A stretch of DNA of 49,510 nucleotides, counting the filler, from Stramenopiles sp. TOSAG23-2 (lineage: Eukaryota), in assembly GCA_900128395.1 (NCBI GenBank). It is 2 parts of 2 records of this genome, joined end to end, with 100 filler letters (N's around TTAATTAATTAA, not from the genome) between each part and the next. Parts side by side here need not be neighbours in the genome. Positions count along the whole stretch, not along the records: positions 1 to 24,808 come from LT649460.1; 1 more part is not named here. One strand, 5' to 3'. Shown here piece after piece: positions 3,951 to 42,986 of the stretch. Position 1 is the first letter of the stretch. Each line of letters opens with the position of its first letter. Below the pieces are notes generated by a model. That model searched no databases. It saw nothing but the letters and a program-made list of their open reading frames with translations, and had not been told where the DNA came from. The position numbers and the translations under genes were made by a program.

Positions 3951-6900
3951 ATGGCTACCGTTATACCAGTAGCAGATGATCCACATGGTAAATACAGTGA
4001 TAAAAACCACGGGATGTCGGACGCTCAGCACAAAGGTGCAAAAAACCATTGGAAACACGTAAAAGCCGAAGTAAAAGTTGGTATGTTTGCAAAAGCGACT
4101 AAACACAAACATAAAATTGCAGCGTGTCATTGCACTGTAATTGGTGTTGTTGTACTCATAGTTGTTTTAACTACTGCAGCTGTTGCAGCCGCAGTGTATA
4201 AAAACCAAGATAAACTATGTTCAAAGGGATATACAAAATTCTGCCCAAAACCAGAACCTAAAGCAAATACACAAGCAGGGAAAGCATTTCAATTTGGAAC
4301 AGTTTCAGTAATACCCCCAAAACACGATTCTAGGCGCCGACTATCAGCAAAGTTTTCGTTCACGCAAGCTATCGACAAATTAGCCCGTGATATAACGCTA
4401 CGTGGTGCAGCAAAAAGAAATGGACGGAAATTAGCTATTGACACAGCAACATTTGCAGAAGATTCTGATTATAATATGGCAACGACAACATTTTTCGTAT
4501 CGGAAGAATCTGCAGAAGCTATGAACATGGTTAGTATGATCATGTGCGACGTAGCACAATTGCGAGCGGCGTATTTTGTAAATCAAGGACCATACAAAGC
4601 TCAAGTAGATGAGAGTAAATGCACAGCCGATGGATCTATGATGGAATGGACCGTAGATGTAAAGACAGTTGGAGCAGCTGATTCAAGTAATACGTTAACA
4701 TGCGCTGGTGATAATGAACCTGCTGTAAATGAAAAAGGCATCGCCACCTTAACTTGTGGCTGGAATATTGACATTTGGTTCCAGACTGGAGATGGTATGC
4801 CAATCAATGTGCAAATGAAAATATGGAAACCTGTTACTATGTGCGAAACTAATTGTGAACCTTCCATGTCATCATGTACATGTGATCCTATTCCTAGGAA
4901 AGAACTACAATTTAAGGCAGGCCCTATGGATATGGGTGGTACTATGGTTAATATGATGGGAATTTTGCATCAAACTGAAAATGGAGAACGAGACGAATCT
5001 ATTAAATTTGGCCAATTTATGTCAATGGGGGATCAATCCATGACTCAAGGTGCTATACATTGGTAAGTATGCCACACACACACACACAATCTCTTTCTTT
5101 TTTGTTTTTAATCACATATCACTAACATGAACTAATATATATATATATATATTAAATTTATAATATAAAATATAAACATATATATATATATAATAAAGTG
5201 AGTACAATACTGGTACAGGTGCTGGAAAAGTTTGGAGTCAATCAACTGAAGGAGGACCAGGGTCTAATCCAACAACGTTCAAATTAGCTTTTGATGGTAC
5301 GTATGTAAAAAAAAGACAAAGATGGAACTGCACAATGTCTTGACATGTCCGACCCAAAGGAAGTTGGAAGTCAATATCAATTATACGATAATACTGGCAA
5401 AGCTGTTATTTTTGAAGAAGGTTTTCCAATCGAAGCAGAATCCGCAGACGGTACAAAATACGAAGCCTGGGCAGGTTATCATGGTTTGCATGTACATAGC
5501 AGAGGCGGTGAGGATTCGGAGGCACAATCGCTATTTGCCGATGGCAAGAAAGTGAATAAAATCAATTATGACGCCGCCTCCAGCAGAACGCCGTATACAT
5601 TAAAAGTTGACAACGGGCGTTTAATGAAAGTATCACGAAAAACAATAACATTAGGGGAGTTGACAGGTGTTACCATGCAAGTTGGTTGGGGTAGTGATGT
5701 GCCAAGAATTATGTTTAATGGAACAAAATTACTGAAAGTTGGTGCTATGGGTGGCATGTGTTTTGCACAAAGCCAAAATGGGCCCCCTACGCTTGTGAAT
5801 GGACCAACAGACCAGTTCAGTTGTATGTGTCAAGGTAGATCATCTGGCCAATTATGGGGTGGGTCAAATATGTGGATGGAAACTTTTCAAGATATATCCA
5901 ATCCAACACCATTCGAAGTTTCTACTGAAGCATTTCCATGGGGCATAGATGTTTCTGCTGGGGAAGGATCGAGTCGGTTTCAAGGAAGAATGAAATTAGA
6001 AGTTGATCAAATAGTAAGAATGTGGATTGCAGGACCATCTTATCAGGGCGGGGCATTTATTGAAGGCCAGAATGTTACTCAAGGAAATGCAGTTGGTGTA
6101 GTTTATACATCAACCCCACAATCATTTACCGGTATTACAAAGAACTATAATCATGCTGAGCAGAGGAAGTCATATGACTGCAGTGGCGCAAAACAAGATT
6201 ATTCGGGGATGATAGGTGACTCTGTGTATTCAGGAACAAAATTGATCCAAGATGCAAGTGGAGCAACGGGTATAGTTAAAGGTCATGGTCATTTTGGATG
6301 GCGAATACAATTTGAAACGACATCAGGAACTTTCGTCGCTAATCAACCTATAAGAATGGTCGATCCAATAGAATTGTCTGGGATGTTTGAGCACTTCAGT
6401 ATAAATGGTTCTTTCACTCCAACTAGTATTAGTCAGCAAGGGCATGAATTACTAGTGAAAGTTACATCGGGAACATTTGCACAAGGTTATTACGATGCTT
6501 CTGCAAGTCAATATGTACCTGCTGCCGATATATATGTTGCTGGAATTAATCAAAATGATTTGTGGGGTTTTCATAGGGAGCAAGGTAAACTTAAGAACCA
6601 ACCAAATGCAAATACAGAGATTACATATACGACTAGAAAATTAGTATTCCCAGATGATACAGTTCCAGCATTGAAATGTTATGACCGTTGTCCAAAAGCT
6701 ACAGGTCTTGCAAGTAGCTGTTCCAGCAATGAGGATTGTTACGAAGGAGAGCCTGGTATTCTAGCAGATGTGAATGTAGACAGTCAAGGTAGTGGATGCG
6801 TTCAGGAAAATCTAGCTTTTGCCATAACAAAAGGTAATGGTGCGTTTACCGGTGCAAGTATTACAGGAACAGTTGATAGCAATGGTAAATTAGTCTCCGC

Positions 6901-7798
6901 TGAAGTGGAAACTTTTGGTAATGGATGTACCAATGACGACACCATTAGCGTTACTGTTAGTGGATGTACAAGTGCACCTAGTGTTTCAGCAAGTTGCAGG
7001 ACAGGAACAGATGATTCTGCGACATATGGACAAGCAAAAACTTATACTTATGATGGTTATTCCTTGAAAGATGGAAATGGTGCTAGTGTAACTGTAGCTG
7101 CAGCCGAAAATTCGCAGTTGAGTTCCATTCACTCAGGTATTCTTTTTGAGTTAACAAACGACGCAAAAGTTAAAGGACAGTGCGAGCATGACACTAGCCA
7201 AGTTTGCTACCATGATCTTCGTGAAAAATTGGATACGTATTATGAGTGGGAAACACGTTCAGCATGGTCAAAACGTGTCAGTTTGATCGATGAGGATGCT
7301 GGAACTTCCGTGAAGTTTGATCAGCCAATGGCAGTTTCATACACACATTCCGGTACAGAATCGAACAGCGGCAAAAATTATCATGGTACTAAAATTTTAC
7401 TATCATATGAAAATGAATTACGCGGATTTCCACAATTGTGTCTCGACAAGACCACTTTACAGAAAGCAGATTGTGCACCGGATTGGTCCGGTATAACAAG
7501 AAATATGCCTGATTTTACCGTTCCAGATAATGCGATTTTTACAAATACAGATACTGGAACAGAATATGTTGCAAAAGCAGGGGAAGTTGAACAAATCATG
7601 AAAATGGCAAGTAGCGCAGCATCTTGTTCCAGTCTTGATACGGCAACAGTACCTGCACCAGTGACAATTGATTTATATCAGTCATTTGAACTTGGTTCCA
7701 AGCCTGATTTATCTGACAAACCAACAGTAGTCTTCAGCGGCATGCTTCTTAAAGAGCTGGAAGAAATTGAAGCAGAAAAAGCAGCTGCATCTGAATAA
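3951..7798 (+). CDS. Large (~1236 aa) Cys/Gly/Thr-rich type II membrane-anchored or secreted protein; exon 1 3951-5062, intron 5063-5198, exon 2 5199-7798 with an apparent 1-nt frameshift in the A8 run at 5307-5314
   Basis: ORFs 3951-5066 and 5345-7798 are joined by GTAAGT donor at 5063, ACTAAC branch near 5121 and AAG acceptor at 5198. Exon 2 reads CEYNTGTGAGKVWSQ...KLAFDGTYVKK, then continues DKDGTAQCLDMSDPK only after removing one A. N-terminal TM segment VIGVVVLIVVLTTAAVAAAVY. Confidence 0.75.
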
Positions 7799-8369
7799 GT
7801 TTGTTCAATATAATCATCTCATATCACATCATAAAAAAAAAACATCTTCAATCTGTAGGCCAAAACAGAGACCATTTTTTCTCTTATATATATGATATAT
7901 ATCACATGATTTGAAATGATATATTATCACACATGTAATATGTTGTAAAAGAAAAAATATGGCGGTTTGCAGTCTTTTTTTTTTATAATACGTACTCCTA
8001 AAATGTATTATATACATGAATACAAAAAAAAAATGTAAAGCATGTTTTCATCACCGAAGAGAGCTGGGAGAGAGGGTAAAATATATTTTCATATAAAAAA
8101 ATACTTCGAAATCGGCTATATGTTATTATTATTAATATATGGTATCCTATCCAATTTGTACTTGAAAGTGTGACATTAGATACATAAACACGAATCTTAA
8201 TTTATTGTGGACACAGCAAGTAAAATCTGTATATTATTATAGTCGAGAGAATTTTCTCTGCTTTTTTTTGATATTTTGTTTTACTCTCCTCTCTCCTCTC
8301 TCCTAAAATATTGAAACATGTTGTATATCAAAAAACATCTATTCTTTTTAAAAGATTCAAGATTTTTTT

Positions 8370-8473
8370 GTCAGCAAATGCACATGTTTTTAAATACAAA
8401 AAATGTCTTTTGATTTTTTACAAAAGATTACCTTTTTTTGTACAAACTATTTTTTTAATGTGCAATGCATCAT
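8370..8473 (-). promoter_or_regulatory. Eukaryotic SECIS element (type II-like, extended apical stem) in the 3'UTR of the selenoprotein gene
   Basis: Minus strand reads A-UGAU (8473-8469), GCAUUGCACAUU, AAAAAAA, ~65 nt apical stem, AUGUGCAUUUGC, UGAC (8373-8370). Ten Watson-Crick pairs in helix II; unpaired As lie 12 nt above the GA/GA quartet. Located about 60 nt after the TAA stop. Confidence 0.75.
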
Positions 8474-8534
8474 TTCTAATACATCATGTACATATGTACA
8501 CAATTAATTATATATTATTTAAATTAATTCATAT

Positions 8535-9275
8535 TTATTGAATCATGCAAGGCAAGACACGTCGTTTGCCACAGCATAATGCATGTCCTATACTATAACC
8601 TTTTTCATTCGGTCTACTATCAATTTTAATTGGATTTCCCGCATCGTATGCATCAACTACCATTGCCATATGTTTCACCGCATCATTTGGTTTAGGTCTT
8701 GGAGTATGATTTTTACCACCCCACGAATATAATGATTTTGCTGAAGAAAACGTTGAGTCTTCAACAGATTGTTTTTGTAATAATATGATAGCTGGTTGAG
8801 TCATGCCATGTGGATAATCATATTCAGGATGATTTGGATCAAAACCAACGGCGGGTCTATTTGTTTTATCAGGGTGCCACGCAGACGGTACAATATCAAT
8901 GTCAGCAAGTTTCAAATCATTTAAAACATTTGCCAATTTATTTGTTGTGTCTGTTAAAATGTCATATGATAAGTTCCATGTATTTCTAGCCATTTCAACA
9001 TGTTCATCTTTTTGTCCTAAAATTACAAATGGTTTGATGCTTTTGCTTTCAAATAAATTATTAGAATCACCAAAATCACCAGCCCACCGACGGCACATCG
9101 GTCACCAATTTCCCCTAACGTATAATAATAAAACATGAGACTCCTTATTAGCATTTATAACAATCTCCATGGGATCTTTTATTGGCACTCCAACATGCGA
9201 TGATTCTTCCACTGCACCATTTTCAGTGACGTCACTAGCAATAACATAATTTTTCTCTATTACTTCTGATGTCAT
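8535..9275 (-). CDS. Selenoprotein of AhpC/TSA (peroxiredoxin-like, thioredoxin fold) type with UxxC motif, 246 aa, Sec58, C-terminal CaaX
   Basis: Frame is open from ATG 9275 (MTSEVIEKNY...HVLLLYVRGNW), through a single TGA at 9104-9102, into the tracked ORF (PMCRRW...). RGxW-[C/U]-PxC is the AhpC/TSA-type redox motif. Downstream YPHGMTQPAIILL...LYSW...RP fits the family. SECIS-like element in the 3'UTR. Confidence 0.9.
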
Positions 9276-9903
9276 TCTAAATATTTTTTCCTAATTAGAT
9301 ATTATATATATATATATACAATAATAATGTCGATAGTATTATTCCTCGTATATATTATCCTGGGAGACTGATTTAGAATCTCTCTCATATATGAATACAT
9401 ACAGTATTAATACTTACACACATGTTGTTGTTTCCGATTTCCGATCTACTATATATCTATACTAGGTGTTATCTAAAAGATCTTAGATCGATCGATCTTC
9501 TTCTATCCAATATCCAATCCCGCCAGCAAAAAACATAATAATTATATTGTAATTTACCATATAAGTACATAATATACCAATATGATAGGGATACATTTTC
9601 ACTTAAAATGATGAAAAATCCCTTTTTTCCAATTTTTCCAAAATAATTTCTTCGAACTATTAATAATTCCGTCGAACCCATCATCATCCCATCATACCAT
9701 CATACCACCAAGAAGAAGAGAAGAAGTAGATATATATATAGAATGTAGAAAGTGATAGTCAATATCATATTTTACAAAAGACAAACATTATAACCAAAAC
9801 TATTAAACAGGAATATTACGATAATAATAACACCACAAAAAGATATCACCCCCCCCCCTTACGCCATTCATAGATATATAATATATATTCAATTTGATAT
9901 ATC

Positions 9904-10812
9904 ATGGACATACCATTAAATAAAGAAATTGAAGCAGTTGGAACCTGGAATACATTTCCACAACCAATTACAACACGTGGGGAAGCAACTATATTTCATA
10001 CCATCGATCCAAATGCACCACCTGGAAATAGAGGTGCTGGTGGTGGTGTATCTGGACCGATCCTAGCAGCAATGATGCAAGAATCGGCAACATTAGCAAC
10101 GATAACTGCTTTACGACATACAGAACAAATTATGGGTACGCTAGAAATTAATATAAATTATATACGACGTGCATCTGGAAAACAAATATTTGCCAAGGCA
10201 AATGTATTAAAAAAAGGTAAAACCGTATCATTTGTCGAAGTTGATATATATAATGATGAGGAACGTTTAGTATGCAATGGGCATGTGATCATTGGTATTA
10301 AATTATCAGGTGGATACGTAAAACCAAATAAATTTGAACATGAAAATTTTGAAAATATATTAAATATGTTTTGGAAAAGCAATGAACATTATGGATATGA
10401 ATTGAAATTAATGGAAAAGAAACGTGGTTATTTAAAATTTGAATTAAATATTGGTCAAGAAAGTGCAAATGTTGATTTGGATAATTTAGCACAAATATTA
10501 CCTGGTGCACATGATTTTGCATGTGTCAACTGCGTTAGTACAATGGTTGATTTTGAAAATGGTGAATATATGAATGGTACAATAAGTTTAAATTTATCTT
10601 ATTTAAAACCATATTTAAAATATGTTGATTTAAAAAGTGATAATAAAAAAATTGAAATTATATCAAAAGTTGAAAAAAAATTAAAACCAGAGGAACAAAT
10701 TGCATTTGCTAGTTGTGAAATTATATCAAATAATGAAGTATTAGCAACTGGACGTATTGTTTATAGCGTAGCAAAAGAAAAAGAAGAATATAATGGTGCA
10801 TTTTCATTGTAG
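9904..10812 (+). CDS. Double hotdog-fold acyl-CoA thioesterase (PaaI-like), 302 aa
   Basis: Two repeats of hotdog motifs: GGVSGPILAAMMQE...GTLEININYIRRA...ANVLKKGKTVSFVEVDIYNDEERLVCNG, and GAHDFAC...GTISLNLSYLKP...IAFASCEIISNNEVLATGR. Confidence 0.85.
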   Translation: MDIPLNKEIEAVGTWNTFPQPITTRGEATIFHTIDPNAPPGNRGAGGGVSGPILAAMMQESATLATITALRHTEQIMGTLEININYIRRASGKQIFAKANVLKKGKTVSFVEVDIYNDEERLVCNGHVIIGIKLSGGYVKPNKFEHENFENILNMFWKSNEHYGYELKLMEKKRGYLKFELNIGQESANVDLDNLAQILPGAHDFACVNCVSTMVDFENGEYMNGTISLNLSYLKPYLKYVDLKSDNKKIEIISKVEKKLKPEEQIAFASCEIISNNEVLATGRIVYSVAKEKEEYNGAFSL

Positions 10813-10999: not shown

Positions 11000-11200
11000 C
11001 ATTTTAGGTTTGTATTTACGAGTATTTCAGGAGAATTTTTAAACATAAGATATATCTACATTCTACATAGACATTGTATCTCTCCAACTCATTGAAAAAA
11101 AAAATCATTTTAGGTTTGTATTTACGAGTATTTCAGGAGAATTTTTAAACATAAGATACATCTACATAGATATTGTATCTCTCCAACTCATGAAAAAAAA
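11000..11200. repeat. Imperfect tandem duplication, unit ~100 bp
   Basis: cattttaggtttgtatttacgagtatttcaggagaatttttaaacataagata...ctccaactca occurs at ~11000 and ~11106. Confidence 0.9.
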
Positions 11201-11212
11201 TCAAAAATCAAA

Positions 11213-11299
11213 CGCAGCAAAGGTGGACTTGAACCACTATTTAATGAAAAATCTATAGGTTTGAAGCCTACACTCCAGACCCCTGAAGCTCATCGCTGC
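11213..11299 (-). tRNA. tRNA-Sec: tRNA-Sec (UCA), copy 1, 87 nt
   Basis: GCAGCGATGAGCTTCAGGGGTCTGGAGTGTAGGCTTCAAACCTATAGATTTTTCATTAAATAGTGGTTCAAGTCCACCTTTGCTGCG. 9-bp acceptor stem with U.U pair, long D-stem with 4-nt loop, anticodon loop CU-UCA-AA (11264-11262), long variable arm, 4-bp T-stem GUGG/CCAC, discriminator G. This is the eukaryotic 9/4 tRNA-Sec fold. Followed by T-runs (Pol III terminator). Confidence 0.97.
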
Positions 11300-11391
11300 C
11301 CATTTATAATTATTTCTCAATGGATATATATGCAATACTATTTGCATGTTATTAGGAAATGTAAATTTTATGTATATATAAGAAAATCAAA

Positions 11392-11478
11392 CGCAGCAAA
11401 GGTGGACTTGAACCACTATTTAATGAAAAATCTATAGGTTTGAAGCCTACACTCCAGACCCCTGAAGCTCATCGCTGC
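11392..11478 (-). tRNA. tRNA-Sec: tRNA-Sec (UCA), copy 2, identical to copy 1
   Basis: Same 87-nt sequence shifted by 179 bp; followed by TTTGATTTT. Confidence 0.95.
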
Positions 11479-11932
11479 CCATTTATAATTATTTCTCAAT
11501 GGATATATATGCAATACTATTTGCATGTTATTAGGAAATGTAAATTTTATGTATATATAAGAAATGAGGATTTAACAGGGACATAGCATCTAGCATTCAC
11601 ATACCACAGGAATTATCCATTTCAATCATTTATAATGGCACAGTATTGGATTTCGTGGATTTCATAATTTGGTACCAAAGTATGTATATTTTCGGTTATA
11701 ACTACTTTTTTAAAATCATATCTATCCTTAGATGTAATATTATTTCCGAAAGATTCTCAAAACGTTTCCTCCCAGCTTTTGAGTGAGATTTTGATGTTTT
11801 TAAACAACGGGAATGGAACTATTGCTATATTGACTAAAGTATGTATATTTTCGAATACTACTACTTTATAAAATAAAATCAATATAGCAATTTCCTATTA
11901 TTTCCGAAATAATTCCATAAAAAGCGAGGAGT

Positions 11933-13887: not shown

Positions 13888-16800
13888 TTAAAACAATGTA
13901 CTACCAAACGAAACTGAACGTTCTTTTAATACAGTCGTATGTCCCCCATCACCACTACTAGTAGTAGTATTACCATCATCAACGTTTTTCTTCTTCTTAT
14001 CATTATTATTATTATTATTATTATTCTTTGACATTACATTTAATTCATCTTCAATTTCAGTTAAAACTTTTAATATATAATCAATGGAAGGACGCATATT
14101 TTGATCATGTGACCAACATGCTTTTGCTAATTCGCAATATTGTGAATACATTATCGAACGTATTTTATCACTCATTGTCGTATCACTACCATCATCATTT
14201 TGTTTTTCTGCATCTGTTTCAAAGATTATATTATCTTTAAATGTTGGACGTAATTTGTGTTCACATACTTTTGTCATTAAATCAATAATCGATGTAGTGT
14301 CCTCACTGAATGGCACACCACGTTCCTAAATACATGTATATATGTATATATATAAATAAAATAAAAATGTTAGAGAAAGAGTCATTCAACACAATAATAA
14401 ATCGATTTATAAAATAAACCTACCATAATTTCCCACATGACCAAACCAAATGCATAAATATCAATACGTTGATCATAAAATCGACCAACCATTACTTCTG
14501 GTGCAATCCATGCTGGTGAACCACACCTCGTAGACAACAAGAAACTTTTCTCCAATGTTGAGCTTAAACCAAAATCACATAATCGTACGGATAAATTTTC
14601 AATACTTGTATTGATATTTTTACGCAAATATTCAGTTAATAATTCATTTGAATTAATTTTTTGTGTTTCGGTTTTATTACTACTGTTATTGCCTTGTTCA
14701 TCATCATCATCATCATCACTACTACAACTGCTACTGCTACTACTACTATCATCTTTGTTACTATCCTCCTCCTCGTCATCATTGCCATCATTTAATTTTT
14801 TCTTCATAAATCGTTGTAATTGAAGATTTTTAAAAATATGTTTATGTGGATGATCGTCTACTTTCTTCTTAGCCCTTTTTTTATATCCAATAATAATATT
14901 TGCAGTTTTTAAATCACGATGTACAACAACAGGTTCTTTATTATGTAAATATTTTAAACCGTTTGCAATATCTTTTGCAATTTTAATTTTCAATTTAAAG
15001 GATAATTGGATTTTATCGTTTGATAAAATATCACGTAAACATCCATATTTCATATATTTACTAACTAGCCAAACTTCATTTTGTGTTGCAACCACACCAA
15101 CAATTTCAACTACATTTGGATGTACTAATGATTGCATTAATTCAATTTCTTTTTGCATCAATGCAAGCTCACGTTCACTTTTTTCAGTATGTGTTCTACG
15201 ATAACATTTTATTGCAACTTTCATGCCTCTAACTTTGCACTTATAGGTAGTACATGCATGGCCAGATGATAAAATTTGTTTTTTCTTTAAAACAGGTATT
15301 TCCCATCTTTCAAGTGGTTTAATATTATTTTTTTTCACTTTTGTATCATATGGTAACGATAATTGCGATTCTTGATCTGTACTATTATTATTATTATTAT
15401 CATTATTATTGCTGATATTATTGTCGCTACTATTAATCAAATATGATGAAGAAGAAGATCTTGTAGCAGCACTAGTAAGAATACTACTAGATGTGTTGAT
15501 AGAATAATTATTATCATTTTGCTGTATTTGATGATTTTGTGATAATGGTTGTGCTAACTTTGTTTCTGTATTATTATTACGTAACCACATATTTGTAGCT
15601 TTTCTATTTTTTTGCCATTGTTGCAATTTTAAAATCAATGTTTGTACCATATTTTTTTTAACCGGTTTAATTAAATAATCATCTGCACCAAGTTCCATGG
15701 CTTTATTGATATCGTTTAATTCTTCCACAACGCTGACTAGTATGATTGGAATATGTAATAATAATATATTACTTTTAACTTGTTGGATAAATTCAATACC
15801 ATTGACACCTGGCATATTTTTATCACACATAATTAAATCATATTTGTATTGATTTTCAAGCAATTCTTGCAATGCATCATTAGCACTTGAACAACATTTT
15901 ACGACGTATCCACAAACTTCCAATACATGTCGTAATGCTAAACGATGGAATGCACTATCATCAATTACTAGTACAGTAATATCCGAAGTTTCTTTATATA
16001 CTTTAGTTGGTATTTCTCGTTCTGGAGTTTGTCGTGTTAGAATATTATCAACCACTTGTATTTCTACCACTGATGATGATGATGCTTGCGCTATGGTTAC
16101 TGGAACAACTATTGACGACGGTGAAGGTTGTTGAATAGTATTTGCAACATGTGGCATATTATTGTTACTATTGTTTCTACTATTGCTACCGCTACTCATA
16201 CTACTACTACTACTACTACTACTAACACCGCTATTACTGTTAATAATACTATTGTTACTAATCCCCATCACATTATTATTTGTAGTACCATTAAACGTTT
16301 CTTTTGTTTCTACGTTGTTATTATTATAATTTGTTGTGTGAAGAACATTTGCTATTATGCAACTGCTATTATTAATGTTATTTGCATGTGCGGATTGAAG
16401 ATTTAATTTAATATCTTCAAGACTGCTATTACTATATAACAATTTATTCGTATCTTCCAGACTACTAGTACTACTGCCAGTACTGCCACTACTATGAACT
16501 CTTTGTTTTTGTTTTTGCTGGACCTTTTCTTTCAATATATGTAAATCATATTTTGTTTGCAATTTTGTTAACATATCTAATGCAAGTGGTCGTTTATTTA
16601 TCGTTTTATCGATACTTTTTTGAATTAAATCAATAAAAAATTGTGGTGATTTTGTAGAGTTACTTGATGGCATCTCTGGGCGTTCCCCAATTTTATATTT
16701 ATATGGTACAACTCTAGGATCATGATATGTTTGTTCTGAAAAAGGTAACCTCCGTGTTAACATTTCCCAAAAGACAATTCCAACACTAAATATATCACAT

Positions 16801-18104
16801 CGCATTAATTCATTACCTGTAAACACTTTATTTTGTTTAAATCGTTCTGGGCATGTCCAATATAAACTAAATTCTTCTTTTTCTTTGTCATTCATTGGTG
16901 GTAACATATGGTGATGGTTGCTGTCGCCATTGTTTGTTGCTGCTGGTGGTAATACAACATTTGGGTTTGCGATCATAGTTGCTAATGTACTCTTTTTCGT
17001 TGTTGTTGTTGAAGACGTCGCCGTCGTCGTTGACCATATGTCATTTTTCATTTTATCTTTTGATCGATCCCATTCAAATGAATGTGTAAAATCAATTAAT
17101 TTACCATGATGATGTGTATGATCTAACATAATATTTGGTGATTTAATATCACCATGTATGATGATAATATTGTTTTTTTTCACCCGTCTTTGTTGATTGT
17201 CGTTGCTGCTGCTGCTGCTGCTGTTGTTGTTGTTGTTGTCCCTATTATTATTAGTAGTAGTATCATTATTTATGATATTATCATGATAAAAATAATTATG
17301 AAGGTACGTAATTGCTTGTAAGATATCAATACTAATTTTCAATGTTTGGCCATAAAAATCTAAATCAGGTAATTTTTTATTATTTAATCTATCATATAAT
17401 GTACCACCATTTAAATATTCTAAACATATGTATTTATTTACGTTGTTTTTTAATACATTTGAATTGCTTGACATTTTTTCAATCGATAATCCTAGAAACG
17501 TAATGATATTTGGATGTCGAATACGTTTAAAAAATTTCAATTCATTTTGCAATTGTGAATTTTTAGAATGTGTTTTCATGACAATCGGTGTACCATTCCA
17601 TTTTACTTTATATACGGTTGATAATGATGTATGTGATAAAATATATTTCGTTTTGTAATCAATATTATGTAATATTGGTGAGGTAGTAGTATGTGGTTGT
17701 TGTAAAATCGATGTTGTTGTATTGTTGTCGTCATTGTCGTTTTTATTCCTGTTGGAAGTAAAAGTCTTCTTCGAGTTGTATTTATCATTTTGATTGACAT
17801 GTAAACTTGATGTTTTGACGGTATTTAATTTACCTAACGTTGTTGCTGTTGTTGTTATAGATGGTATAGAATTTGATAACGATGACGATGTTGGCATTGA
17901 CAATATATTATTATTATTACTTGTTGTAATATTATTATTATTATTATTATTGCTTGTAACTATTTGGTGATTTATTATATCATCATTATTTTGACATATA
18001 TTAGTTTGGATATTATCATGATTCTGTGCAGAACTATTATAATTATTATTATTATTATTATTATTATTATTGGATGTATTCAACGTACTATTTTTGCAAC
18101 CCAT
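13888..18104 (-). CDS. Dual TKL-type kinase with central response-regulator receiver domain (kinase-REC-kinase), ~1372 aa; exon 18104-14424, intron 14423-14326, exon 14325-13888
   Basis: Kinase 1: HPNII, HGDIKSPN, DFT, WTCPE, DIFSVG. REC: VLVIDD...DLIMCDKNMPGVNG...ILVS...GADDYLIKP. Kinase 2: VAIK, HRDLKTAN, DFG, WIAPE, DIYAFG. GTAGGT donor and TTTAG acceptor join WEIM|ERGVPF in frame. N-terminus MGCKNS. Confidence 0.92.
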
Positions 18105-41345: not shown

Positions 41346-42595
41346 TTACCATCCATCACAAATTTCCCAACTATCCATAACTGCTTGTTCTTCAATTTTA
41401 CGATCATTATCATCCGTCTCAATAATATGAATTTTTCTGTGCTGATGTGTAGATGCACAACTGTGATGAGGTAGTATTTCCAGTATCATACCGATTGGAA
41501 AATTATCAAAATTAATTGGTGATCCATCACTTGTTTCTACTTCGCCAGCTTCTTGCTTTAAAACTTTTATACATAATTTGTGTTTTTCAGTACCTGCAAT
41601 ACGCCCATAATGATTGCTTTCCCCTTGTGCGCTGCAACCTGTCCATCCACAATCTATTAGCAACATATTTTGTTTCGGGTATTTCCCAATTACTCTAGTC
41701 AGTACACGGACAGCAATATCATCCAATGTACATGATCCTAAATCTGCTTGCATGCAATCGTAGTATATAAAATTTCCAGGATGTATTGCATCTATCTCAT
41801 TTAGATGCGATGGCATTATACTGCAAGTTGGAGTGCTTCCAACGGTTATCATTACATCAGACATGCCAATACCAATACCAAAATGAGATCGTATTTTATT
41901 TGCAAAATTGACAACAGCATCCCTTTCGATTTCAGCAATTGCTTTTATTTCATTCTTTGATTTCCCTCCATAAGAGTGTCCACCCTTTGGATGGAGCGTA
42001 GTGAAGTGTGTTAGAGGGGATATCTTTTTAAGGGTTAAGAAATTATACTTACGTGCGTATAGATTCCTCCAAAAATCATTTTGTCTTTGCCGGCATTGTA
42101 TAATGCAGCTATTAGTTCCAAACTGTCTGGATCTTTTGGATCTATTCCATCTCTGTGGTATCCACAATCTACCATGACCCAAACATGCCATGGTTTAATA
42201 TGATTTGGATGGGAAAAATTAATTAAGGCACTTATCATTTCCATTGAATCTACCAAAATCGAAAATTTATCCATTTTGTTATTTAGCTTCATTGCATCCA
42301 TAAATTTATCAGGGGTAATTGGAACAGCATATAAAATATCATCGAATCCACCATTGCAAAAGAAATTCACTTCTGCCAATGTTGAACAGACAATACCATT
42401 TCTACGACCTCCTGTTTGTATCATTGCGCCTTGGATCGTTTTGTGTGTTTTTACATGAGGTGTCAGCTTTACATTGAATTTGTCTGCCTGTTTTAACATT
42501 TGATATGCATTGTTTTTAATTTTATTTAAATACCCAATTAAACACGGTGTTCTTAATTCGGATATTGATTTTGCTGTGGACGATAATGAAGCCAT
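41346..42595 (-). CDS. D-serine dehydratase / D-threonine aldolase-like fold-type III PLP enzyme (Dsd1 family), 393 aa; exon 42595-42053, intron 42052-41985, exon 41984-41346
   Basis: LRTP, PHVKTHKT (PLP lysine), STLAE, DDILYAVP, VDCGYHRDG, YTH|GGHSY (in-frame across a 68-nt GTAAGT...CTAAC...AAG intron), VGSTPT, HPGNFIYYD, QEAG, PHHSC (Zn ligands). Confidence 0.93.
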
Positions 42596-42628
42596 GATAA
42601 TGTGGTTTATATTTTCAATTGTACAATA

Positions 42629-42669
<41 letters not shown>

Positions 42670-42986
42670 TACGTATATTAGCTTCTTATATTTATTGGCA
42701 ACAACATACGCGGGTAATTTCTTCAAGGAGTAATCATACATGTGGTCTATTATAATACATGCTGTACCTGGTATGTATATTTTTAATAAAAGAAGAGGGT
42801 TTTTTTTTTTTAAGGTTAGCTAGCCCAGCTAGCCCGGCTAGCCAGGAGTGCATGACTGTGTGTGATGATGAGGAGAGATGAGAATTGCACAACAATTCAA
42901 TCAATGAAAGATTATAATATATTTATCATATTGGTTCAAGAAGATAGTATATAAGTATATAACAAAGAAATCATCAATTGTTAAGC

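Follow-up and report, generated by a model that had tools for sequence, protein, structure and literature searches.

The stretch of DNA analysed here (the window) comprises 49,510 nucleotides in two joined parts from Stramenopiles sp. TOSAG23-2 (assembly GCA_900128395.1) and carries, in the part taken from LT649460.1, a putative selenoprotein gene that is split in two by an in-frame TGA. The minus-strand frame starts with an ATG at 9275, reaches a TGA at 9104-9102 after 57 codons and then continues for 188 codons to a TAA at 8537-8535, exactly as an earlier note on this DNA had described. The translation ends in ...SHVLLLYVRGNW before the TGA and reads P-M-C-R-R-W... after it. Reading through the TGA generates a product of 246 residues that is in frame with a 187-residue open reading frame (ORF; 8535..9098) called with translation table 11, and the table-11 listing holds only the separate 57-residue and 187-residue pieces. 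We propose that the region 9275-8535 (-) is, very probably, a single intronless nuclear gene of an AT-rich marine single-celled eukaryote and encodes a 246-residue peroxiredoxin-like oxidoreductase of the AhpC/TSA superfamily with a BCP/PrxQ-like fold, in which codon 58 specifies selenocysteine (Sec).

What kind of protein would the complete frame encode? The read-through protein passes the threshold of the Pfam AhpC-TSA family (PF00578) over residues 42-118 (32.0 bits against a gathering value of 26, E 1.3e-7), and its match to Redoxin (PF08534) falls under the cut-off (22.7 against 26.6). An AlphaFold2 model, built from alignment A2 with Cys in place of Sec, has a mean predicted local distance difference test (pLDDT) score of 74.5 and a predicted template modelling (pTM) score of 0.74. 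The pLDDT values are 80-94 in the core, 83-94 over residues 31-130 and 78-92 over residues 151-220, and they are low at residues 1-30, 134-147 and 230-246. In the model, residue 58 lies between the strand 47-52 and the helix 59-69, which is the classic redox position of the thioredoxin fold. The top structural matches (Foldseek, VIA) are the BCP/PrxQ-type peroxiredoxins 5epf (Z 14.1) and 2a4v (Z 14.0), and lower matches include other peroxiredoxins, PRXL2B (Z 12.1) and oxidoreductases of the ResA/TlpA/DsbE type (Z ~10-11.8; ResA/TlpA ~11.6).

Typical peroxiredoxins contain the peroxidatic motif P-x-x-x-T/S-x-x-C. The P-x-x-x-T-x-x-C pattern is absent from the protein studied here, given that its corresponding segment, Y-V-R-G-N-W-U-P-M-C, has neither Pro at position -7 nor Thr/Ser at position -3 of C61. 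Because this motif is missing and the peroxiredoxin-like structural and Pfam matches are present, the model suggests that the protein works as a CxxC-type peroxiredoxin-like oxidoreductase and not as a typical peroxiredoxin. Among NCBIfam profiles, the best match is NF040769 (SelL-related redox protein), whose score of 16.3 bits (E 0.0059) falls far short of the curated cut-off of 120; the same profile is also the best NCBIfam match for five of the seven other proteins scanned. The profile of SelU/PRXL2, which we take to be Pfam AhpC-TSA_2, was not matched in the Pfam search, which returned only AhpC-TSA and Redoxin at E up to 1.

Database homologs reproduce both the redox motif and the truncation. 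A search of 5.8 billion proteins identified only six close homologs, and all six are cut off at the column of codon 58: five are called from the Met directly after the TGA column, and the sixth (P0004) begins with 10 unrelated residues and matches the family from residue 62 onwards. A second search, against 1.84 billion representative sequences, returned 23 matches at E up to 0.001, one of which (P0010) is a 57-residue N-terminal piece recorded as a separate protein. Fourteen of these 23 matches were fetched; P0018, P0021, P0023, P0025, P0027 and P0029 were neither fetched nor aligned. In alignment A2, which has 17 rows and includes nine distant homologs together with orthologs, every distant homolog has Cys both at the U column and at the second position of the motif, [FY]RGxW-C-PxC. 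By eye, an RGxW-C-PxC-type motif is also carried by P0019 and by both domains of P0012, and P0013 has a WCGWC thioredoxin motif. The alignment further shares the stretch YP[HxN]GMxQP, in which P161 is nearly invariant, and the invariant Arg R193. Among the distant Cys forms, those with a named source come from EukProt (Gymnochlora and Amoebidium), and a sequence search of the PDB gave no relevant match. The check named in the earlier note, that homologs have Cys or Sec at this column, thus comes out in favour of its Sec assignment, and the truncated calls agree with its statement that standard gene callers would drop the catalytic residue. P0012 of Gymnochlora, one of the distant Cys forms, is built from a tandem duplication of the entire domain, with FYRGHWCPFC and YPTGMAQP in both copies.

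The TGA is conserved in related DNA. A scan of metagenomes retrieved three related loci, L001, L002 and L003, with amino-acid identities of 99%, 65% and 68%, respectively, in addition to two weak 29-residue matches (L004 and L005). All three related loci have an in-frame TGA at the same column within ...YVRGNW-TGA-P-[ML]-C-RRW. Upstream of the TGA, the codons that are identical, synonymous and non-synonymous relative to the window number 2, 9 and 1 in L002 (12 alignable) and 6, 11 and 4 in L003 (21 alignable). The downstream counts are 59, 61 and 68 in L002 and 49, 55 and 52 in L003. Since the upstream codon changes are mostly synonymous, the piece that precedes the TGA is constrained as coding sequence in the same frame. 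The Met60 used as a start by gene callers is Leu in L002 (P-L-C), and thus this start codon is not conserved.

Two further features of these loci were observed. The L003 ortholog (~535-1070) follows the family to residue 214 and is then succeeded by leucine-rich-repeat-like coding sequence in another frame; this break could reflect chimeric assembly, a rearrangement or an intron, and the part of L003 covered includes neither the end of the gene nor its SECIS. A 16-nt word, AAGGCATCGCGTCCTT, is found after the 3' ends of two different genes (L002 ~773-790 and L003 ~1096-1113) and may represent a 3'-end or repeat motif specific to the lineage.

Contigs from four RNA runs of four studies, three of whose libraries were prepared with polyA or oligo-dT selection, were compared with the window region 8100-9600. 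Twelve contig records are colinear over 8293-9248, and no joint that would indicate splicing is reported. Outside this span, the four runs give no cover, which does not count as evidence. Five of the records include positions 9102-9104 without a differing letter, and one of them (8901-9137) has at least 31 letters on both sides of the codon. Seven variant sites occur in the coding sequence (CDS) on both sides of the TGA, of which five are synonymous and the other two are I40L and G66C. The records of two studies stop at 8299 and 8293 without loose ends there. An intron over 9102-9104 and a TGT, TGC or TGG in place of TGA, each of which the earlier note had named as a finding that would undo its Sec assignment, thus find no counterpart in the RNA-library contigs, and the independent DNA assemblies likewise read TGA.

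TGA is an ordinary stop in this organism. The stops of the 22 other window ORFs of at least 180 residues are TAA (12), TGA (6) and TAG (4), and this use of TGA excludes genome-wide reassignment. Moreover, no other window ORF of at least 150 residues is lengthened by more than 17 codons through TGA read-through, whereas the candidate joins pieces of 57 and 188 codons.

The genome also encodes the tRNA that Sec insertion would require. Two tRNA-Sec genes with identical sequence are encoded on the same strand, 2 kb away from the selenoprotein gene, as parts of an exact 179-nt tandem repeat (11204-11382 and 11383-11561). In each 179-nt unit, the gene is preceded by ~90 nt of identical sequence that contains an octamer-like word, ATGCAAAT, and, immediately ahead of the gene, a TATAAAT word. 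Judged by eye, nine pairs are possible in the acceptor stem and four in the T stem, which corresponds to the eukaryotic/archaeal form. A thioesterase-like gene (9904-10812, +) sits between the selenoprotein gene and the tRNA-Sec pair. tRNA-Sec is described as usually single-copy, with multi-copy genomes known (PMC5330540). Downstream of the pair, the region 11000-11200 contains direct repeats of 62 nt (98%, spacing 106) and 40 nt (93%, spacing 99) and has been subject to several local duplications. The features of the locus are collected in Table 1.

Table 1. Features of the putative selenoprotein locus and the tRNA-Sec genes (positions in the window)
Feature	Positions	Strand	Basis
Putative selenoprotein CDS, 246 codons + TAA, intronless	8535..9275	-	Frame, Pfam, colinear RNA contigs, AlphaFold2 model
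Codon 58 TGA, probably read as Sec (U of the U-P-M-C redox motif)	9102..9104	-	TGA kept in L001-L003; Cys in distant homologs; RNA contigs; position in the model
Codon 61 TGC, second (putative resolving) Cys of UxxC	9093..9095	-	C61 nearly invariant in alignment A2
C-M-I-Q, codons 243-246, CaaX-type box; CCGKRR upstream (residues 233-238)	8538..8549	-	Ortholog C-termini
3' untranslated region, likely mRNA 3' end near 8293-8299	8293..8534	-	RNA contig ends, weak hint
Candidate type-II-like selenocysteine insertion sequence in the 3' untranslated region	8367..8476	-	AUGA 8473-8470, 3' GA 8372-8371; folding and conservation
tRNA-Sec gene copy 2, anticodon TCA	11213..11299	-	ARAGORN; Rfam RF01852, 64.4 bits against gathering 47
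tRNA-Sec gene copy 1, anticodon TCA	11392..11478	-	ARAGORN; Rfam RF01852

In addition to the tRNA, Sec insertion would depend on a selenocysteine insertion sequence (SECIS) in the 3' untranslated region (UTR), and a candidate stem-loop begins ~60 nt past the stop in the window and ~35 nt past the stop in L002. Unconstrained folds of the isolated elements give the same architecture in window 8476-8367, L001 762-874 and L002 640-720. AUGA is followed by one mismatch, a helix interrupted by a small internal loop, a 10-14 nt A-rich 5' loop and a further helix, and the return side consists of the 3' arm and then GA-C-AAA. Helix II contains 3+7 bp in the window and L001 and 4+4+3 bp in L002, and the folding energies are -22.3 kcal/mol (window), -22.0 kcal/mol (L001) and -15.0 kcal/mol (L002). 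The window and L001 elements differ in two places, a 3-nt insertion in the A-rich loop and an A to G change in the apical loop, both of which are unpaired. A covariance model of the window and L001 elements was searched against 67 kb on two strands, and its best non-self match is L002 641-720 with 18.8 bits. The second-best match, at window 7913-8002 (+; 17.6 bits), has no 3' GA and follows a gene without an in-frame TGA, and it was put down to chance. A hairpin just after the UGA (CCGA...UCGG), considered as a possible recoding helper, was likewise discarded, given that it is not kept in L003. Neither the MAFFT alignment of the three elements, which misplaces the 5' arm of L002, nor alignment A7, which has spurious rows, was used for counts.

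The protein also has a conserved C-terminal tail. All 17 ortholog C-termini, which represent ~6 clusters at 90% identity, consist of ...CCG[KR][RN]..., a few residues and then C[MAV]IQ or CVVM; P0007 and L003, which diverge earlier, were left out of this count. Two of the nine distant Cys homologs also end in C-a-a-X (CSIM and CIIS). In the AlphaFold2 model, the tail residues 230-246 are disordered, which fits a tail of this type. A CaaX box with Q, M or S at the X position directs farnesylation, and nearby Cys and basic residues form a second membrane signal, as in Ras. Judging from this arrangement, we lean towards the view that the tail acts as a lipid anchor at the cytosolic face of a membrane.

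How should the UGA at codon 58 be read? The earlier note had proposed Sec, and this proposal is supported by the conserved TGA, the Cys homologs, the tRNA-Sec genes and the SECIS-like stem-loop, the last of which counts as a candidate. If the UGA were instead a plain stop, the locus would produce a 57-residue peptide, a 187-residue protein from Met60 or both, in keeping with the table-11 calls made here, with the Met60 starts of five of the six database homologs and with the failure to match a SECIS in Rfam. We regard this reading as highly improbable: in the 187-residue product, the strand 47-52 and the first of the redox residues would be missing from a fold whose pLDDT is 83-94 over residues 31-60; neither the frame nor the amino-acid conservation breaks off at the TGA in three species or strains, in which the upstream changes are mostly synonymous; and the presumed start is Leu in L002. 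Alternatively, the UGA could be decoded as one of the standard amino acids (Trp, Cys or Arg) through near-cognate decoding or a local code change. One point for such decoding, which also counts against Sec, is that P0037 and P0044 (227 residues; L002-type cluster) have W at the U column, and another is the non-canonical form of the SECIS candidate. However, a gene caller set to table 4 writes W wherever the DNA has TGA. The 90% cluster that contains P0037 also contains L002, and since L002 has TGA, the W of both proteins is probably a TGA rendered as Trp by a gene caller that uses a TGA=Trp table. The N-terminus of P0037/P0044 (MAEAVEKYV...) resembles that of the window protein (MTSEVIEKNYV...) by eye, and BLASTP aligns them only from residue 36. 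The column is moreover occupied in homologs by the catalytic Cys of CxxC, where Trp would be inactive, and the organism both terminates six of its 22 long window ORFs with TGA and has two tRNA-Sec genes. Decoding as a standard amino acid therefore seems very unlikely. A pseudogene or a sequencing or assembly error, which a single in-frame stop might resemble as the mark of a recent nonsense mutation or mistake, has a negligible probability in view of the same TGA in four independent DNA records and in contigs of four RNA-library runs and of the purifying pattern of change on both sides of the TGA. The RNA-library contigs themselves do not prove transcription, and translation is beyond what such contigs can show, which is a reservation about Sec decoding as well.

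Several further observations weigh against our assignment of the SECIS and the tail. No Rfam SECIS match was obtained for 7800-9700 and L001-L003 at E up to 10 or for the window at E up to 5. The 3' core is UGAC in the window and CGAC in L002, instead of KGAW; the SECIS core consensus is given as UGAN/KGAW in PMC3753652. The element further has a weak helix 1 and, in the window, an unusually long apical part (~70 nt), and no compensatory base-pair change is found between the two distinct species. The covariance match to L002 has an E of 0.15 under a rough calibration, which is suggestive given the expected place and not significant alone. In a 141-nt context, the minimum-energy fold is a different pairing, which we treat as not conserved because the upstream segment that it uses is partly deleted in L001. 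The gene could thus encode a selenoprotein whose true SECIS lies elsewhere or has another shape, with the stem-loop at 8476-8367 serving another function in the 3' UTR. AUGA...GA stems are common in this AT-rich DNA, as illustrated by a loose scan that yielded 51 matches in the window. The scan did not pick up the candidate and is too crude for an estimate of significance. We nevertheless find this alternative rather unlikely. The two arms of the stem-loop are conserved between the window and L002, and, if a short stretch close to the putative 3' end is set aside, 8476-8367 is the only conserved UTR block, the remainder being barely alignable. In both species, AUGA and GA are positioned at the foot of a 10-11 bp helix that is followed by an A-rich loop. 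The element is contained in RNA-library contigs (8299-8476 and 8293-8497), and no other AUGA...GA stem shared by the window and L002 UTRs was seen by eye. The stem-loop at 8476-8367 is thus probably the SECIS of the gene, and it stays a candidate owing to the missing Rfam match and the divergent 3' core. For the tail, the argument for lipidation is one from motif, and a Cys-rich tail could also be redox-active or metal-binding and shuttle electrons to the Sec-Cys centre. The tail contains three Cys residues (4-8 in P0011), and flexible redox tails are known in other selenoenzymes, such as thioredoxin reductase. However, every ortholog fits the C-aliphatic-aliphatic-X pattern with Q or M at X, a conserved KRR patch and a CC pair precede it, and a CaaX box with a basic patch and a CC pair is the membrane-targeting arrangement of the Ras type. 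In addition, the two distant Cys homologs that end in CSIM and CIIS keep only the CaaX end. A redox or metal-binding tail is thus the less likely explanation.

From these features, we infer a scheme that covers Sec insertion, SECIS function, the catalytic cycle and its substrate, and lipidation. UGA codon 58 would be recoded to Sec, for which the two tRNA-Sec genes at a distance of 2 kb would supply the Sec-tRNA. The AUGA...GA stem-loop would direct this recoding from its place ~60 nt past the stop (8476-8367), with SECIS-binding and elongation factors assumed to be present. Sec58, at the N-terminus of the active-site helix, would attack a peroxide or a disulfide; Cys61 would then resolve the intermediate as a selenenylsulfide, and a thiol reductant would re-reduce the enzyme. 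The Ras-like tail, with a farnesylated CaaX Cys, a palmitoylated CC pair and a basic patch, would hold the enzyme at the cytosolic face of a membrane.

The surroundings of the gene are consistent with its proposed nuclear origin. The window has a G+C content of ~30% and long, mostly uninterrupted ORFs with asparagine-rich runs, and its Pfam domains include Nup93/Nic96, protein kinases with a receiver domain, Kelch, MORN, GOLD and acyltransferase. Given the domain content and the long ORFs, the window is eukaryotic nuclear DNA. Among the sequencing runs that contain the stretch, marine or seawater metagenomes and metatranscriptomes predominate. Three other places in the window are of separate interest. 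A D-serine-dehydratase-like gene at 41346-42670 (-) is split over the overlapping ORFs 42035-42670 and 41346-42191, which suggests a short intron or a frameshift. Two adjacent ORFs of 371 and 817 residues at 3951-7798 (+) have a G+C content of 0.39 compared with ~0.30, are rich in Cys, Gly, Ser and Thr, differ in composition from their neighbours and have no Pfam match. In a 1240-residue protein at 14382-18104 (-), two protein-kinase domains occur together with a response-regulator receiver domain of bacterial type.

Uncultured marine protists are rich in selenoproteins, and the gene adds a family to their selenoproteome. It is surprising that the family is rare and exists in the Sec form only, that the protein has a CaaX tail, that standard models miss the probable SECIS and that tandem tRNA-Sec genes are adjacent. 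The locus also provides a concrete case in which automatic annotation loses the catalytic residue and a third of the fold, and it illustrates how calls probably made with a TGA=Trp table hide selenoproteins as apparent Trp variants. The SECIS-like element missed by the standard Rfam models would help to extend SECIS models to AT-rich protists. If real, the CaaX tail would represent a new way to place selenium redox chemistry at membranes, for a purpose comparable to lipid-peroxide protection of the GPx4 type. More tentatively, the gene could be the founder of an undescribed Sec-only family restricted to a few marine protists and encode the first selenoprotein tethered to a membrane by a Ras-like farnesyl/palmitoyl tail, and not by a transmembrane helix, as a selenol peroxidase or reductase at the cytosolic face. 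This possibility, which falls somewhat short of an even chance, also includes a SECIS variant with a conserved, non-consensus YGAC 3' core and an unusually long apical helix and the adjoining tandem tRNA-Sec genes.

The protein can be compared with several known systems. Among BCP/PrxQ-type peroxiredoxins, BcpB (5epf) and the yeast nuclear thiol peroxidase (2a4v) superimpose on the model with root-mean-square deviations of 2.5 and 2.2 A over 138 and 135 residues, respectively, and these enzymes likewise have their redox residue at the start of the active-site helix. In contrast to them, the protein presented here, at 12-15% identity, contains a CxxC-type W-U-P-M-C motif, an extra 35-residue insertion (~128-160, partly of low confidence) and a lipidation-type tail. 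SelL and SelL-related proteins (NF040769) and 'PRX_like2', presumably the name of the CxxC peroxiredoxin-like group, likewise combine a peroxiredoxin-like fold with a CxxC/UxxU-type motif that immediately follows RGxW. The SelL motif is UxxU, whereas the protein here has a single Sec (UxxC).

The SECIS candidate can be set beside the canonical eukaryotic type II SECIS as presented in PMC3753652. Both are located in the 3' UTR and have an AUGA 5' core, a possible tandem G.A/A.G with the 3' GA, a helix 2 of ~10-11 bp, an unpaired A run after helix 2 and an extra helix 3. The candidate differs in its UGAC/CGAC 3' core, very long helix 3, weak helix 1 and lack of an Rfam match. For the tail, the literature searched, which covered few subscription journals and was seen in part, contains no prenylated selenoprotein, and the nearest case is MIEN1 (C17orf37), a Cys form. 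According to the abstracts of PMC6738349 and PMC3527542, MIEN1 is also a small thioredoxin-fold protein with a redox motif that is brought to the membrane by a C-terminal CaaX box. Unlike the protein here, MIEN1 has Cys and not Sec, is geranylgeranylated and belongs to the SelW/Rdx thioredoxin-fold group, and no homology between the two was detected in our analysis.

A close published counterpart is AhpC_b of the diatom Thalassiosira oceanica (Jiang et al. 2020, PMC7539508). As far as the consulted sections of that paper describe it, and in a comparison made by description only, AhpC_b is likewise a eukaryotic selenoprotein that has UxxC in an AhpC_TSA domain in place of the Prx-type motif and exists almost only in the Sec form. 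The only homologs reported there for AhpC_b are prokaryotic Cys forms, whereas eukaryotic Cys homologs (Gymnochlora and Amoebidium) are found here, and the same sections do not mention a CaaX tail for AhpC_b. Peroxiredoxin, peroxiredoxin-like and thioredoxin-fold selenoproteins have also been described in Ostreococcus and Thalassiosira (PMC2375036), and Prx-like/AhpC-type UxxC selenoproteins of aquatic protists have thus already been published (PMC7539508, PMC2375036). The gene at 9275-8535 very probably encodes an undescribed member of these known AhpC/Prx-like UxxC selenoproteins of aquatic protists.

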